A stretch of DNA of 64,000 bases from an uncultured Bacteroidales bacterium (GTDB lineage: Bacteria > Bacteroidota > Bacteroidia > Bacteroidales > GCA-2748055): NCBI GenBank assembly GCA_963764345.1, contig CAVXSF010000033.1, forward strand, positions 7,931 through 71,930, read 5' to 3'. Each line of letters begins with the position of its first letter. Within the stretch, counting starts at the first letter, position 1. The translations under genes and the position numbers were made by a program. This document shows positions 516-64,000 of the stretch, piece by piece. The notes under the pieces are model-generated. The model was not told the origin of the DNA, searched no databases, and saw only the letters and a list, made by a program, of their open reading frames with translations.

Positions 516-1404
516 AATTGCAAGCATTGATTCGCAAAACAAACTTGATGATCGGTGTAAAAGTTGTTTCTTCAATACTTATCAAAGGTTGTTTGATAAG
601 TTTAATGTCGGAAAAGTACAACGTCAAAAGTTTCTTGTATTTTATGATGAAACAATAAATAATCACAACCACCTTTCCAGCCCTGAGATACAAAGGGAAT
701 TGAATAATATGTTTTGCGGAATTATCAATGTTTCCAATCCGTTTGAAGAAGAAAAAATAAACAGTAACGCTATTTCATTAGAGTTGTACAAGGAATGGAA
801 ACCGAAAGTGCTTTCATCGCATGACCCTTTTGATTTAGCGTTACGGCTTGCCATTGCAGGAAATATTATGGATTACGGAGCAAATAATAGTTTCGACGTG
901 CATGAGACTATAAATACTGTTTTAAAGGCTTCGTTTGCCACTGATGATTCAAAGCTTCTGAGGAACAAGATTAATAAGGCAAACAAGATTTTATACATTG
1001 GAGACAACGCAGGTGAAATTGTTTTTGATAAACTTTTCATAGAAACCGTTAAGCATCAAAATGTCATATACGCGGTTAAAGATGCTCCTGTGCTGAACGA
1101 TGTAACGATGACAGATGCTAAAGAGGTTGGGATGGATTTGGTTGCCGGAGTTATTTCAAATGGCTTTGATGCCCCTTCAACAGTCTTGCAGAAATGCAGC
1201 AAAGAATTTCAGGAGATTTATAATTCTGCAGACCTTATCATTTCAAAAGGACAGGGGAATTTTGAAGGTTTGATGCACCAAAATGATTCAAGAATATTTT
1301 TTCTTCTCATGGCAAAATGTAATGTTATTGGTGAAATTTTAAATGTTGAAAAAGGAAGTTTTGTTGTTTATAATCAAAGCGAAAAGTTAAATGCAAAAAA
1401 TTAA
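487..1404 (+). CDS. DUF89/ARMT1-like damage-control phosphatase (true start probably ~20 codons downstream)
   Basis: N-terminal CKSC; AIAGNIMDYG, GDNAGEIVFD, ISKGQGNFE motifs. Confidence 0.85.
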   Translation: MTMTITTNTEIASIDSQNKLDDRCKSCFFNTYQRLFDKFNVGKVQRQKFLVFYDETINNHNHLSSPEIQRELNNMFCGIINVSNPFEEEKINSNAISLELYKEWKPKVLSSHDPFDLALRLAIAGNIMDYGANNSFDVHETINTVLKASFATDDSKLLRNKINKANKILYIGDNAGEIVFDKLFIETVKHQNVIYAVKDAPVLNDVTMTDAKEVGMDLVAGVISNGFDAPSTVLQKCSKEFQEIYNSADLIISKGQGNFEGLMHQNDSRIFFLLMAKCNVIGEILNVEKGSFVVYNQSEKLNAKN

Positions 1405-30089: not shown

Positions 30090-33000
30090 TTAAAATGAAA
30101 TATTGACACCAAGGCTGTATCGCCGCAATAAAGGATATTCAAACTGGCTGGTTGCATCCATCGGGCGGTCCCTGTCTTCCAAAAGCTTGTTCCAGATCAG
30201 CACATTATTGACCGCAACATATATCATGAGTTTATCCAGCCCGGAAGCTTCCAGTCGCCTGCCCGAAAACGTATAGGAAACCTGAGCATTCTGCAATTTG
30301 AAGTAGGAATAGTCCCATACATAGTACTGTCCTTTGGGTGAATAATAATTATACCTTACATGAGGATAGAGATCCCCGGAGGTTCTACCCACTTCAGGTG
30401 CCCAGGAATCGTTCATCTGGAAGTTGTAAGCTATATCGTAGTTCTGGTAAAATTCATTATACCAGTTATATGTGCCGCTTACATTAAATACTCCGTAAAA
30501 TTGGGCCTGGATGCCGAAACCCCTGTAATCATATCCAAGTGTAACACCATAGGAATATTCAGGAGTAAGGGTATACTGATAGGGAACCACATCATCCGAA
30601 TTGATTACCCCGTCTGCATTATAGTCGACCAGCCTGTAATCTCCAGGAAGATAGAAGGTATTATCATCGAGAACGACACCGTTATACATGTCATCCCATG
30701 ACTGGATGATACCTGAAGTCACCTGGGTCTTGGTCTGATCGATAGGAAAACCTGCCAGCTTTTTGTACTCGGGAGTAAGTTTCGGGTCATCCGCGAAAAT
30801 GATTTTATTATTCGTTCTGGACAGATTATATTTTGCCCAAAGTCGTGAATGGGGAAATGCTTTGGAGAAATTCAGTTCCAACTCCCATCCTTTAGATCTC
30901 AGTTCCCCCAGGTTGGCCGAGGGCATATCGGCGCCGAAGATGACATTACTGGCCCTGTCGGATCCGGAAATGAACATATCAGTACGGTGTTCCCAGTAAT
31001 AATCAAATGTCATGGACAACAGATTTTTAAAGATGCCTGCTTCGAGACCGATATCCTGTTTCTCCGCCACTTCCCAGTGAACATTCGGGTTGGCAATCGT
31101 TCCTTCAAAATTGAGCGGATATCCCGGCTGTGTAACCGGAGAACCAAAAGGCCTGGTATTGTTACTGGTATTCCAGCTTCCTACATACTGCCAGCGCAAA
31201 ATATTGTTATCATTTCCGGTTTTACCCCAAGAATACCGTAATTTAAGGGTATTTACGAAGGGCAGCGCAGACTGGAAGAATTTTTCATTCGACAGCATCC
31301 ATCCCCCTGCGAAAGACGGGAAAAATCCAAACCGGTATTTTCTTGAAAATTTTTCAGAACCGTTGTATGCCCCGTTAAATTCCAGAAAGTACCTGGAATC
31401 AAAATTATAAGTAGTTCTCCCTACCCATCCTTCCCGGTAACTTGGGAATTTACTCCCTACGGCGCTTGTCTCACGGTTAAAAAGAAGGAGGCCGGTCACC
31501 GACTGCTTCCCAAAATCATTGGCATAATTCAGGGATGTTTCGTAATAGAGGTGCCTGAAGACATACTGATTATTACTTGATGGTATATTCTCCGACGTGA
31601 GCTGAACAGGCTGGTTTATGTAGTTAAAGCCATGAGAAGGAGTGGTCGGATACATATACACAACGGCATTTGCTGAATCCTGTGCGGTGCTGGCATTCAG
31701 GATCGCCGGACTGACGTATTTGCGGATCCTGCCCACATCCGACACGTCCGGGCCGGTGGTGAAAAAATAATTATCAAAAGATGTTTTGGCTCTCACTGAA
31801 AGTCCTTTGGTAATAAAATCCAGTTTCTGCGTAAGCGCAAAATCGGTAGTCACCTCAGAACGGTTGTTCCTGTTAAGACCCAGGAAGTTACCGGTATAGG
31901 CAGTATTTGTAAAAGTGGTGAACTGGCTTGAACTTGCATAGGTACCATCAGCATATGTAACCGGGAACATATCCGGTGGATTGGAATAGAATCCCTTCCA
32001 GAGCTGGCTTCTGTCGTTTACACCAGGTGTTTTCTTAGAACCGTAGATACCGGCAAGGTTTACACTGAATTTGGTAGTTTTCGAAATATCAAAGTCAAAA
32101 TTGCTCCTGAAGTTATACCGGTCGTAGGCAAAGGAAGGATCGTATCCCTGCCCCATATCCGATAGATTCATAATATCACCCTGTCTCAGATATCCCAGTG
32201 AAAGGAAATACCTGACAAACTGGGTCCCGCCACGGACACCGAAGTTATATCTCTGGTCCCAGGCGTAGTCTTTGCTCATCACATCTCTCCAGTTAACGTC
32301 GGGGTATAATTCAGGGTATTGCTGTGTTTTGTAATACTGCAGTACATCCCAAGGAACGTAGGCACTCCAGGAACTTTCATCAGCCGGCAGACCGTACTCG
32401 ATGGCCATATCCTTAAGCTTATTCACATCGTAGGAATTCAGATCCTGCGGGAGTTTGGAAATGGTTCCGGCAGTTAAAATGCTCTCGAAGGAAAGTACCG
32501 GTTTCCCGATTTGTCCCCTCTTGGTAGTTATAAGGATAACTCCGTCGGCACCCCGTACACCGAAAACTGCGGTTGCAGAGGCATCCTTCAGAACAGAAAT
32601 ATTTTCAATCTCATTCGGGTCTACATCCATCAGGGAACGTTCAACACCGTCGACCAGAACAAGAGGTTCTCCTCCGTTCCATGTAGTTTGGCCACGAATA
32701 AAAATCTTTGTGGCATGGTCGTCTTTTCCTGCCGCATTGCTTAAAGGTGCACCACCGGGGACACCGGTCGACCTGATGGAGATTACACCGGGCATCAGCC
32801 CGTTCAGATCATCGGCAAGGTTGCTTCCCTGAAAATTTCGTTTAATGCTCTCACCCTTGGTTTGCCCAATGGCTCCAACCACACTCTCTTTTTTCTGAGA
32901 GCCATAACCGACCACGACAATTTCTTCGAGGGATGTTGACTCGGGCTTCAGGTTCACATCGATGGAATTCATCTGATCTGTCACCGTGAAGGTCTGTGTT

Positions 33001-59913: not shown

Positions 59914-60140
59914 GGAGTTAGGGAGTTATGGAGTTAGGGAGTGAGGGATTTAGGGATTTAGGGATTTAGGGATTTAGGGATTTAGGGATTTAGGGATTTA
60001 GGGATTTAGGGATTTAGGGATTTAGGGATTTAGGGAGTTAGGGAGTTAGGGAGTTAGGGAGTTGAGTTGTTGAGTGTGAGTTGAGTTGTTGAGTTGTTTA
60101 GTTGTTTAGTTGTTTAGTTGTTTAGTTGTTTAGTTGTTGA
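59911..60140 (+). repeat. Composite octamer array: 19 units TAGGGAGT/TAGGGATT, then TGAGTTGT/TTAGTTGT units
   Basis: Read directly; begins at the TAG stop; 10 perfect TAGGGATT units at 59951-60030. Confidence 0.95.
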
Positions 60141-61099: not shown

Positions 61100-62071
61100 A
61101 TGAAAAATGTAACATTAGTTTTAGCAGTAGCTTTATTAATAGTTTCAACAAATCTTTTTGCACAAAGGAAAACAGATATTGAAGGTAGTAAAGATTATCC
61201 TCTGGTGTCAAGATTTGAAGGTTCTGTTATCGAGTATTATAAAGATACAAAATGGGATACTTACAAATTACCCGTTTATGAAGATAACATAACACAACCA
61301 AATTATAAAAATCCTGTCACTTTAGAAGGAGAAGTTATCAGAACTCAATATTCTGTACCATCTGACAATAATCCTTCTTATGTTATGAAGAACTTCGAAA
61401 AAGCGTTTACTTCAAAGAATTACAAAATTCTTTTAGAAGGAAAACCCGGAGAAGGAATTGAAGAAGGACCGGCTGGTTTCAACGGAGATTTTTACGGTAG
61501 TCAGAAAGCTTTAAATCTTGACAAGTTCAGATATGCTTATGAACCAACCGGAGATGGCGATAAAGCAATAATTGTTGCAAAAACAAATAAAGATGGAAAG
61601 GCTATTTATATTGTAGAAGTAATAGGTGCTTTTTCTAATACAACATTAATAACTCAGGATGTAATAGAAGTTGAGGAAGCAGAAACAGGAAAGGTTACGG
61701 CTTTAGATATTAATAAAGACATAACATCAAACGGGCACATTGCTATTTACGATATTCACTTCGATACAGGGAAATCAACATTAAAAACAGAATCGGCAGA
61801 AGCATTAAAAAATATTGCAGAATTTTTAAACGGTCATCCTTCAAAGAAATTTTTAATTGTTGGGCATACTGATAATGTAGGAAATTTTGATGCTAACTTA
61901 AAACTATCAAAAGATAGAGCAGATGCTGTTTTGAATGAATTAGTGACAAATCATTCAGTAAAAGCTGAGCAATTACAAGCCTATGGAGACGGTTCTACAG
62001 CTCCTGTTGCGAGTAATTCAACTGAAACCGGAAAAGCAAAAAACAGAAGAGTTGAAATCGTAGAACTATAA
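61100..62071 (+). CDS. OmpA-family protein with N-terminal DUF4892-like domain
   Basis: GSKDYPLVSRFEGS; IHFDTGKS, GHTD..G..D.N.KLS.DRA, NRRVEIV. Confidence 0.88.
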   Translation: MKNVTLVLAVALLIVSTNLFAQRKTDIEGSKDYPLVSRFEGSVIEYYKDTKWDTYKLPVYEDNITQPNYKNPVTLEGEVIRTQYSVPSDNNPSYVMKNFEKAFTSKNYKILLEGKPGEGIEEGPAGFNGDFYGSQKALNLDKFRYAYEPTGDGDKAIIVAKTNKDGKAIYIVEVIGAFSNTTLITQDVIEVEEAETGKVTALDINKDITSNGHIAIYDIHFDTGKSTLKTESAEALKNIAEFLNGHPSKKFLIVGHTDNVGNFDANLKLSKDRADAVLNELVTNHSVKAEQLQAYGDGSTAPVASNSTETGKAKNRRVEIVEL

Positions 62072-62091
62072 TATACTACTGCCGGTCGGGT

Positions 62092-62295
62092 AGGCGTCTG
62101 ATCCCGACTAAGCGGGACCGGTACGCCTCTCCCGCCACTTCCTCCCGAAAGTTTTCGGGAGGTCATGAATACAGCGCTTTCCCGATTGAATAACCGGGAC
62201 AGGCAATTCAATTGAAGGGGTACGGTTTTATCCATCTCCGAAAACCTAACCGTTTCATATAGTCAAAGGTCAGCCTCCCGCAGAGCGGGACAGGT
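62092..62295. repeat. Cluster of four REP-like TCCCG..CGGGA hairpins
   Basis: atcccgactaagcgggac, cctcccgaaagttttcgggagg, ttcccgattgaataaccgggac, cctcccgcagagcgggac. Confidence 0.7.
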
Positions 62296-62584
62296 CGTGC
62301 AAAAATTCCCCCTTCGTTGTTAATACCCTATTCTTTTACAAATTACCTGATCAGCAGCGATTTATTTTGAAATAGATCAAAATCCAAGGATTCCAAACGG
62401 GGAACGGACCGCAACCAGATGATGATGTTCTGCCTGGGAAGCTCCATTGCCCGGGATTCGTTTGTTCGTGTGGCTGATGCCTTCGCAGATGTTACCGGTC
62501 TAAAGGGTGCTGCCCGGAGCAGTACATTAAAACTGTTGCATATACCTTCCGATAGGGAGGGATATATTCAACTGTGCAGGAGTT

Positions 62585-62866
62585 TTGACAATATTATTTT
62601 ACCAAACCACCGGGAAGGAATATTCAGCAAGCTGCATACAGAATATAGTCCATGCTGCGGTAAAAGCTGCCGGGATAAAAAAGAAGACGTCACTTCATAC
62701 CCTTCGGCTCACGTATGCCGCACACAATCGGGGAAAGGGGGTAAATTTAAGGTACATTCAAGATATGATGAGACATTCAAGCAGCAAGACGACGGAGATA
62801 TACACCCCTATAACTCAAAAAGGCTTTAATCAAATAAAAAGTCCGATGGATGACTTGGATTTGTAA
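62585..62866 (+). pseudogene. Truncated tyrosine recombinase/integrase (C-terminal ~93 aa)
   Basis: HTLR box, LRYIQDMMRHSSSKTTEIY, terminal IKSPMDDLDL; N-terminal two-thirds absent; HSFATH and LGH motifs degenerate. Confidence 0.8.
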
Positions 62867-62941
62867 AATTATTGCTATATTTATTTAACTAAACTAAACT
62901 AAAGGGGCTGAACACATATGCAAAATAAATGCAACTGTTAC

Positions 62942-62999
62942 ATATACTCCTCAAATTTGAGGAGTATATACAATGGGTGTGTTTAGCCACTCGTTGGGC
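62942..62999 (+). mobile_element. attI-like region: perfect 28-bp palindrome + GTTGGGC core site
   Basis: ATATACTCCTCAAA/TTTGAGGAGTATAT (62942-62969); GTTRRRY at 62993-62999. Confidence 0.5.
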
Positions 63000-63185
63000 G
63001 GTAATTACAAAGAGAAAACCGACACTTGGATTAAATAAAAAAAACCACGTCTTACCTATGCGAACGAAGACTATTAAGCTTTAATCGTATCTGGTGTAAC
63101 ATAGATAGTTAACGGTAATCGAAAACCTTTGAATTATAAAGCAATATGTCATGAATTCCTAAGTTAAATCTGGATTGAAACTTGA

Positions 63186-63326
63186 GAGAGGGTGTGGATA
63201 CAAATATACCGTGATTTAAACTTCGATAAATTAAATACAGATGGGCAGGAATGGGATACTGGAATCAAAGTAGACGTCATTCTGGAGATCAAAAATGGAT
63301 TGATTCATTGGAAAGCTATTAGGTAA
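63186..63326 (+). pseudogene. Decayed cassette ORF remnant
   Basis: Start-less frame ERVWIQIYRDLNFDKLNTDGQEWDTGIKVDVILEIKNGLIHWKAIR*, preceded by an in-frame stop and ending 45 bp before the attC-like site. Confidence 0.4.
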
Positions 63327-63371
63327 TTCGCAAGGCACCAATATGTACAAGGAGTTCGAATAATGAAAACG

Positions 63372-63508
63372 TTGCCGCCAACATCCGGTAAATTTCATTG
63401 CCAGGTTCGTTCCTTTATTTTGTAAATTCGTTATTACGATGAATTAATAATATTAACGAAGGCTAACGCCAGCTGGCAACGAAACTTACCGGTAACGCGT
63501 TGGGTTGC
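63372..63508 (+). mobile_element. attC-like recombination site
   Basis: TTGCCGCCAAC inverse core; arms 63384-63404 and 63473-63493 are 18/21 complementary; GTTGGGT core at 63499-63505; ~135 bp. Confidence 0.62.
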
Positions 63509-63547
63509 AATTGTACCGACAAGCCAGCACGATTAAAAGTGAGTTAA

Positions 63548-64000
63548 ATGAGTGAAAAATTTCTTCAAAAGTTTAGTTTTTATGATTATGAAAATGTTTC
63601 TATTGATTATAGTATAAAAACTAAATTGTTAGATTTGAACACTTTAGTTGATTATATAAAGATTAATCCGACTCGAGGATATAGTAAAGCTGAAAAATAT
63701 ATTGGAAAGCATCTTAATCCTTCAACAAAGAAAATTGAAACATCTGAGAGGCAACGGCCATGGACATTGTGGGTTTATAGCACAAATGGAATGGTGACGA
63801 GTAAGAGATTTGATGACCATGCAGAACACTTGATTCTAAAGGTGCAAAATGCAAAAGGACAAATAAAGGAATTTATTAATCAGCCTGACAGGTTTGAGAT
63901 AATGATACAGATTTACTTATCGGTTTATAAAAAAGAGAATTATTTTGGATTTGGGATTAAGTCTGATTTATTTGGCAAATTGATTGAGATTACGAATTTT
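63548..64000 (+). CDS. DUF4279-like hypothetical protein (runs off window end), cassette-like
   Basis: Open frame of 151 codons from ATG 63548 (MSEKFLQKF...IKINPTRGYSKAEK...RPWTLWVYST...); very AT-rich; starts 43 bp after the core site. Confidence 0.65.
   Translation, partial: MSEKFLQKFSFYDYENVSIDYSIKTKLLDLNTLVDYIKINPTRGYSKAEKYIGKHLNPSTKKIETSERQRPWTLWVYSTNGMVTSKRFDDHAEHLILKVQNAKGQIKEFINQPDRFEIMIQIYLSVYKKENYFGFGIKSDLFGKLIEITNF

Follow-up and report, generated by a model that had tools for sequence, protein, structure and literature searches.

Integrons are the textbook device of bacterial gene capture and shuffling, and are defined by the integrase IntI and its special additional domain. Here we describe an array of hairpin-bounded units in a 64,000-nt stretch of DNA from an uncultured Bacteroidales bacterium (contig C33, 7931-71930; hereafter the window, which the contig sequence continues for a further 1937 nt), and compare it with integrons, with the Xer recombinases and with proteins that carry HARP domains. 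On our reading, to which we give a probability of roughly three in four, the unit at 62994-63499 is the first cassette of an integron-like array that comprises at least four cassettes and reaches the contig end past the window. The figure of four is a lower bound, since a transposase gene of the IS1595 family interrupts the fourth cassette at the contig end.

As in classical integrons, the arrays consist of mostly one-gene, seemingly promoter-less cassettes in a single orientation, and each recombination site is an imperfect hairpin of the order R''-L''...L'-R' with AAC and GTT at its two ends, a putative crossover between G and TT (G/TT below) and an inverse core that pairs with the cassette's own left end. 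Likewise, the bottom strand of these sites folds better than the top, their sequences are diverse and their structure is common to all. An attI-like site lies beside a tyrosine recombinase gene, and the core of that recombinase is closest in fold to VchIntIA (2A3V); the site stands 3' of the co-oriented gene, as in the "inverted" integrons of Treponema denticola and in archaeal integrons. Related loci carry defence genes (TIR, NACHT, type I restriction-modification), as classical integrons do. Unlike IntI, the recombinase described here lacks the IntI-specific domain, falls below the cut-off of the profile TIGR02249 and carries one to three N-terminal HARP-like modules. The hairpins differ from classical ones in having no conserved extrahelical bases, in a near-invariant A·C pair on the top strand (T·G on the bottom) and in a one-sided bulge of 3-5 nt where classical sites have a symmetrical central spacer; their core consensus is less strict, and there are several copies of the platform (recombinase end plus attI-like site) per genome. 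The system is integron-like, yet it lacks both the extrahelical bases and the IntI additional domain of the classical family. That the two should be missing together makes sense, since in IntI, as seen in the 2A3V structure, the domain reads those bases.

In the literature cited in PMC9668308 the additional domain is regarded as defining and necessary. Surveys have reported integrons to be nearly absent from Bacteroidetes; IntegronFinder 2.0 recovered a complete integron in one Bacteroidetes strain, Salinibacter ruber M1, whereas In0 elements were all that an earlier study had found in the phylum (PMC9024848). Reviews, PMC9668308 among them, count Bacteroidota with the phyla known to have integrons. 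Our full-text literature search returned no published description of arrays such as these or of a HARP-fused recombinase.

Cassette ends and hairpin sites

The elements of the first cassette, in window coordinates, are as follows.

62993-62999, + strand: core GTTGGGC, with the putative crossover between G62993 and T62994, where the homology of the attI copies breaks
62993-63004: left junction, G (62993) followed by TTGGGCGGTAA, with TT at 62994-5
62994-63499, + strand: cassette 1, 506 bp, without a credible gene (longest + strand stop-to-stop frame 46 codons)
63372-63508, + strand: attC-like site of cassette 1 in situ, in the order R''-L''-loop-L'-R'
63372-63382, + strand: extended inverse core R'' TTGCCGCCAAC, which pairs with the left end TTGGGCGGTAA of the same cassette save for one substitution and one gap
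63385-63404, + strand: hairpin arm L'', 20 nt, 90% complementary to 63473-63492
63473-63492, + strand: hairpin arm L', inverted-repeat partner of 63385-63404
63499-63508: downstream core string GTTGGGTTGC, with core GTTGGGT at 63499-63505

A sequence-only reading of this DNA had proposed, from the complementarity of its two ends, that 62994-63499 is an excisable unit. The junction, inverse-core and downstream-core strings on which that proposal rested are all present where it placed them, the unit has the length it gave, and comparison with the reverse complement returned the one substitution and one gap that it described between inverse core and left end. Its further point, that the inverse core matches the cassette's own end better than the downstream core, held in direction, with 6/9 against 5/9 gapped positions (two substitutions and one gap separate the inverse core from the downstream core), but the margin is one base, so that cassette 1 taken alone does not exceed chance.

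A wider comparison took in the 18 cassettes of this genome, from four arrays, for which both ends are known. Scored over the nine bases beyond AAC/GTT, pairing of the inverse core with the cassette's own left end averages 7.5/9, against 3.8/9 with the adjacent core in situ and 3.6/9 with non-cognate ends; the rule holds across all 18 cassettes, and 0 of 20000 permutations reached the observed own-end total. The rule also predicted a site on contig C8 that a stem scanner had missed and that was then found. The next unit of the array behaves in the same way.

63500-64386 (past the window end), + strand: cassette 2, with a DUF4279 gene at 63548-64021 and a DUF6980 gene at 64030-64251

The expectation that the end of this next cassette would complement its own left core was borne out: its inverse core, at 64261-64269, reads GCAACCAAC, one C short of the predicted GCAACCCAAC, and is complementary to its own left end GTTGGGTTGC. 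When the flanks are included, 14 of 16 positions of this end, AACAACTGCAACCAAC, pair with the left end GTTGGGTTGCAATTGT, and the rebuilt site folds at -35.0 kcal/mol as compared with -27.2 kcal/mol for the site with its in-situ neighbour (z = -7.09). Cassette 3 (64387-65030) sets GCGCCTAAC against GTTAGGCGC, a 9/9 match, and its rebuilt site folds at z = -6.2. Cassette 4 begins at 65031 and is the one interrupted by the IS1595-family gene. For cassette 1, circularisation in silico gave the long bottom-strand hairpin that had been expected (-32.1 kcal/mol, z = -5.73, with 0 of 200 shuffles as good; the top strand reaches -29.2 kcal/mol), but not the classical extrahelical bases that had been expected with it.

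Cassette 1 holds either no gene or only the decayed remains of one. Its 379-bp interior returned a single 33-nt partial match in the 60 related genomes searched and no match in five species of the same genus, and so offers no comparative handle; hairpins of its sequence class border unrelated cassettes on another contig. For cassette 2, a homologue with the same two genes (DUF4279 and DUF6980; protein 76% identical) stands in a metagenome array among different neighbours, where it has the same extended inverse core and a different hairpin; cassette 2's DUF4279 protein has one relative only in the protein collection searched. The pairing rule, the breaks at the attI junctions described below, the shared hairpin class and the cassette homologue in another array together support the proposal that such units would be inserted as circles by site-specific recombination, and judged by these comparisons the unit at 62994-63499 bears every sequence mark of a cassette that entered in this way at G/TT.

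Hairpin sites in this genome were located with BLAST, nhmmer and a simple stem scanner, which placed them also on contigs C8, C11, C18, C6 and C32. At low thresholds the scanner gave false matches in tandem repeats on C5, C9, C12 and C13, and sites were kept only if they lay in arrays, obeyed the pairing rule or were found by a covariance model. Each cassette ends with a site of ~120-140 nt that runs from R'' (..AAC) through L'', a variable loop and L' to R' (GTT..), and although at least eight unrelated sequence classes are present, the architecture is one. AAC and GTT are invariant or nearly so, being found in 19/19 sites of this genome and in 32-33 of 34 sites from other genomes; the core consensus is GTTRNNN.

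Covariation was assessed on a top-strand alignment with a hand-set structure, a bottom-strand MAFFT version having been dropped because it mis-registered several sites. In the 19 sites of this genome 80% of cells are paired, as against 56% in shuffles and 30-40% when partners are slid, and changes on both sides affect 122 cells, as compared with 45 in shuffles. The 34 foreign sites, aligned to the model, show 84% paired against 57%, and 225 both-side changes against 76. Compensatory changes affect 18 of the 21 pairs of the L stem in the 19 sites, and 18-20 pairs across the own and foreign sets. Trained on the sites of this genome alone, the covariance model detects 22 in its 5.15 Mb, of which 21 lie within or at the ends of mapped arrays; the weakest match (E 0.0013) is near the end of contig C31. 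The site of cassette 1, itself among the training sequences, scores 96.9 bits (E 9e-19). A search of the whole window against Rfam gave no hit above threshold, and one of 61900-64000 gave none at E <= 0.01; the hairpins are therefore not explained by any curated RNA family.

All folds are predictions made with DNA energy parameters. They comprise an R stem, a bulge of 3-5 nt on the R'-L' side with 0-2 nt opposite, and a near-continuous L stem of 15-21 bp with at most one 1x1 mismatch. A recurrent bulged (extrahelical) base in the L stem is absent from the predicted minimum-free-energy structures of the 19 sites. In cassette 1 all 20 positions of the L'' arm at 63385-63404 are predicted to pair on the bottom strand, some of them as G·T wobbles; cassettes 1 and 2 have in common a one-base bulge of the R stem. 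One fixed stem position is A·C on the top strand (T·G on the bottom) in 18/19 sites of this genome and in 33/34 foreign sites; a second A·C position occurs in 11/19 own sites, and an A·C pair flanks AAC/GTT in 32/34 foreign sites. Such mismatches would weaken the top-strand or mRNA hairpin and leave that of the bottom strand unaffected. The bottom strand is the more stable in 17/19 sites, by a mean of 3.3 kcal/mol, with a Wilcoxon p of 3e-4 that is only indicative because related sites are not independent.

Recombinase, attI-like region and distribution

Directly upstream of cassette 1 lies a platform that consists of a dead recombinase gene and an attI-like region.

62264-62866, + strand: decayed HARP-type tyrosine recombinase gene, with internal deletions, frameshifts and altered catalytic motifs
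62867-62993, + strand: attI-like region, ~127 bp from the recombinase stop codon to the crossover G, conserved in all platform copies
62942-62969, no strand: palindrome ATATACTCCTCAAATTTGAGGAGTATAT, perfect over 28 bp, inside the attI-like region

Six attI-like copies in this genome are alike as far as ...GTTTAGCCACTCGTT and diverge immediately past GTT; in ten further copies, from two same-genus species, the likeness stops at that very point, and ten different sequences follow. All 16 of these junctions break at GTT, two of the ten same-genus ones with a base change inside it. The 28-bp palindrome, which may be a terminator or a protein-binding element, is present in every platform copy but the truncated C11b, with a few base changes in some. 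We also asked whether the attI module might itself be a cassette; no hairpin sites were found upstream of the truncated platform copies, where the DNA is ordinary. The recombinase 3' end with attI is present in about nine copies in one sister species, in three in another and in none in two others, so that platform copy number varies sharply within the genus.

Three pieces of the window remnant align with an intact gene on contig C11: 62264-62504 with C11 39253-39004 (83%), 62503-62613 with C11 38531-38420 (85%) and 62607-62996 with C11 37243-36854 (94%), with ~0.47 kb and ~1.2 kb deleted between them. HTLRL replaces HTLRH and YTP replaces YTH in the remnant, and its match to TIGR02249 is limited to profile positions 239-315 (63 bits). 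On C11 the intact gene is followed by attI and by an array of at least ten cassettes that obeys the pairing rule and is co-oriented with the enzyme; it includes a cassette with a TonB_C domain and a multi-gene cassette of 4.5 kb. With an intact gene and a near-identical attI in the same genome, the C11 enzyme could act in trans on the array in the window.

The C11 enzyme has 546 aa and the Pfam domains Phage_int_SAM_4, Phage_integrase and HARP, the last at 29-31 bits against a cut-off of 25. Its best match among curated NCBIfam models is TIGR02249, at 211.9 bits and thus below the cut-off of 265, and the match falls into two stretches that leave out positions 181-238. When aligned with IntI1-type and Vibrio IntI proteins, the enzyme has a gap of ~40 residues where they carry their additional domain, and it shares with them a C-terminal ..SP(L/M)D.L tail. 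Nothing in this genome (95.9% complete) attains the TIGR02249 cut-off. The enzyme resembles XerC/XerD and archaeal XerA in the size and fold of its catalytic core and in lacking the IntI insertion, but it falls below all Xer cut-offs (XerA, NF040815, 203 against 220 bits; XerD 161 against 330; XerC 158 against 335), involves no dif-type site, carries the HARP extension and heads cassette arrays. Its best fold match is the site-bound Vibrio integron integrase 2A3V (E 1.3e-17), followed by XerA (5HXY, E 5e-16); in this full-length fold search, which is dominated by the catalytic core, the N-terminal modules found no match. In a sequence search of the PDB the third of those modules matched the HARP domain of SMARCAL1 (4O66, E 2.8e-4), and an AlphaFold model with a pLDDT (predicted local distance difference test) of 76.8 predicts three beta-beta-alpha-beta-beta-alpha modules N-terminal to the core. 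The predicted unit would thus occur three times, fused here to a tyrosine recombinase and in SMARCAL1 and HepA-related proteins to an SNF2 motor. HARP domains, as in SMARCAL1, bind forked DNA.

Among 8000 candidates scored, 4898 were relatives of the recombinase at E <= 1e-10. The 120 matches listed measure 483-584 aa, are 52-100% identical to the C11 query and are labelled only as XerD, site-specific integrase or tyrosine-type recombinase, with taxon labels of Bacteroidota or Bacteroidales metagenome-assembled genomes (MAGs). The family is conserved over its whole length, and relatives have one, two or three HARP-like modules. Full-length relatives that are 34-38% identical in the best segment also occur in contigs labelled Candidatus Undinarchaeales archaeon and Gemmatimonadota (L027, L039), which may reflect spread beyond Bacteroidota or a binning error.

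Loci of Flavobacteriaceae bacterium S0862, a Flavobacterium MAG, Aquiflexum sp. TKW24L, a Gilvibacter MAG and several metagenome contigs contain arrays that follow the pairing rule; in these the array comes after the recombinase gene and runs in the same direction. In 16 foreign loci the covariance model finds the 34 sites referred to above, all downstream of the recombinase and on the same strand, and none in the equally long upstream flanks. A survey of the order, with one genome per genus, found hairpin sites in 84/120 genera, the recombinase (E <= 1e-40) in 58/120 and both in 55 (odds ratio 21, p = 5e-9); a classical IntI over the cut-off is present in 1/121 genomes of the order. Downstream of homologous recombinases, the cassettes of two related loci (L097 10932-20806, L099 11692-21143) carry genes of defence type: for a TIR-domain protein, for a NACHT protein and, in a single unit that exceeds 7 kb, for a complete type I restriction-modification system.

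Proposed mechanism and alternatives

We propose that, as in integrons, the substrate would be the folded bottom strand, which a tyrosine recombinase would cut at the G/TT of R'. With this cut the cassette would leave as a circle, reuniting its TT... left end with its own hairpin, and could re-enter at the attI-like site 3' of the recombinase gene. The choice of strand would be encoded in two features of the site, namely the conserved A·C pairs of the top strand, read on the bottom strand as T·G or G·T wobbles, and the 3-5-nt bulge between R' and L'; extrahelical bases would have no visible part in it. That the HARP-type enzyme is the recombinase of the array seems to us quite probable; that it acts on the single-stranded bottom strand, with the HARP modules reading the folded site, we hold with somewhat less certainty. 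We also lean, with more reserve, towards the broader view that Bacteroidota own a phylum-wide integron lineage, in which folded single-stranded hairpins are recombined by an enzyme that is related to IntI and XerA but has no IntI additional domain, HARP modules recognise the folded site, and wobbles and a one-sided bulge mark the strand; searches keyed to IntI may miss it.

Were this so, a large and ecologically dominant phylum would have a gene-capture system of which we found no description, present in most genera of the order sampled. Recombination of folded single-stranded DNA would be possible without the IntI insertion, which raises the question of how a HARP-fused enzyme reads a hairpin, and the cassette pool of such arrays, with the TIR, NACHT and restriction-modification genes of related loci, may be a large uncatalogued reservoir of accessory and defence functions. 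The idea that G·T wobbles mark the strand is a simple one that mutation could test.

Several points weigh against this interpretation. Cassette recombination is deduced from the logic of the sequences and from comparison, not seen as a product. Cassette 1 has no gene, and the advantage of its own end is the one base noted above. The recombinase adjoining it is dead, so the array may be frozen, and only one of the six platform copies in this genome has an intact recombinase, which could mean that the system is in decay here. The HARP assignment is made on modest scores, both for Pfam and for 4O66. The 34 foreign sites, having been aligned to the model, lean towards its structure and towards its A·C position. 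In the survey of the order, some of the recombinase matches counted at E <= 1e-40 cover no more than the catalytic domain, and 29 genera have hairpin sites without a recombinase match; fragmented assemblies, which make up most of the 29, may explain this.

An alternative that we consider unlikely is that the HARP-type enzyme acts on double-stranded cores in the manner of Xer or lambda, and that the hairpins are travelling terminators or insulators. It would suit an enzyme that lacks the insertion by which IntI reads folded DNA and whose catalytic core is about equally close to XerA and IntI, and a hairpin at the end of each gene could indeed serve as a terminator. The pairing rule, however, requires that R'' and R' meet across the full hairpin, and the stems of 15-21 bp covary strongly and are not followed by runs of T. 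A·C mismatches on the sense strand would moreover weaken an mRNA terminator, yet they pair as G·T on the bottom DNA strand, and the forked DNA bound by HARP domains points in the same direction.

It is a little less likely again that 62994-63499 is a decayed cassette, or filler between attI and a solitary hairpin, and is no longer mobile. The lack of a gene, the gap and mismatch of R'' against the left end and the dead recombinase next to it are what would be expected of such a remnant. Its hairpin, on the other hand, is intact and, with the caveat that it was a training sequence, among the best-scoring of the genome; the rebuilt site folds well, and cassette 2 has the same one-base bulge in its R stem. 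Gene-less cassettes are commonplace in integrons, and the intact recombinase on C11 has a near-identical attI.

We regard it as very improbable that a classical IntI built the array, and serves it in trans or has since been lost, with the adjoining recombinase unrelated to it. The R''/L''/L'/R' layout with AAC...GTT, the G/TT crossover and the own-end pairing are all features of classical attC sites, and clusters of attC sites lacking integrases (CALINs) are common in published surveys (PMC4889954). Against this stand a 95.9% complete genome in which nothing reaches the IntI cut-off, an order in which IntI occurs in one of 121 genomes and hairpin sites in 84 of 120, sites without extrahelical bases, and arrays at whose head stand a HARP-type recombinase, whole or as a remnant, and a conserved attI with its end at G/TT. 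Least credible of all is that the hairpins are intergenic repeats of the repetitive extragenic palindrome (REP) or miniature inverted-repeat transposable element (MITE) type whose inverted termini produce the end complementarity without any moving cassettes: the sites are repeated, palindromic and intergenic, and some sequence classes recur on several contigs, but the extended inverse core matches the core of the previous site rather than its own (7.5/9 against 3.8/9), which is impossible for a self-contained repeat, at least eight unrelated classes share one structure, and 16 different sequences follow the same attI, all joined to it at a single nucleotide position.

Neighbouring elements

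In addition to the integron-like array read here, contigs C33 and C11 carry other elements beside or within the arrays. The IS1595-family transposase gene that ends contig C33 encodes a zinc ribbon and a DDE domain and lies at window-equivalent 65238-65936 (L016 5169-5867). At the far end of the C11 array is an IS91-type element (C11:22276-24683) with a Y2 transposase gene, a gene for a 313-aa recombinase and a terminal hairpin that the stem scanner scored as attC-like. The 313-aa recombinase (C11:22276-23124) was considered as a second integrase and rejected, being paired with the IS91-type Y2 transposase gene. The DNA past the element starts with GTTAGCCTTTGT, which resembles the last C11 cassette boundary, GTTAGCCTTTAT, in the opposite orientation. 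Separate full-length tyrosine-recombinase open frames of Xer size are present elsewhere in the genome, of 305 aa on C35 and of 311 aa on C18.

A group II intron of ~700 nt without an open reading frame occupies the R' core of a C11 hairpin site (~30654-31357; L009 ~655-1358, minus strand) and is oriented like the cassettes (Rfam group-II-D1D4-2, 76 bits; Intron_gpII, 62 bits). It apparently lies between GT and T, and its joined flanks restore GTTGTGTGGCA, which pairs with the inverse core of the next cassette. Directly upstream of the intact C11 gene and co-oriented with it is a pair of genes (L009 9379-10018, minus strand) whose translations, on reading, resemble a Gp49/HigB-type toxin and an XRE-family antitoxin; the pair is followed by GCCAAC..., which resembles the start of a hairpin site.

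In the window, a GC-rich stretch without an Rfam match (62072-62330) lies between an OmpA-family gene and the recombinase remnant. Its last part, from 62264, reads TCAGCCTCCCGC..GCGGGACAGGTCGTGCAAAAA.TCCCCC and is also found upstream of the intact C11 gene; the same string recurs at C11:17469-17534 and C34:5304-5347, and may have a regulatory role or mark the end of a mobile element. Further upstream, at 60000-60140, tandem octamer arrays of the form (AGGGATTT)n / (AGGGAGTT)n and then (GTTGTTTA)n-type units stand just past the stop codon of an RraA-like gene.

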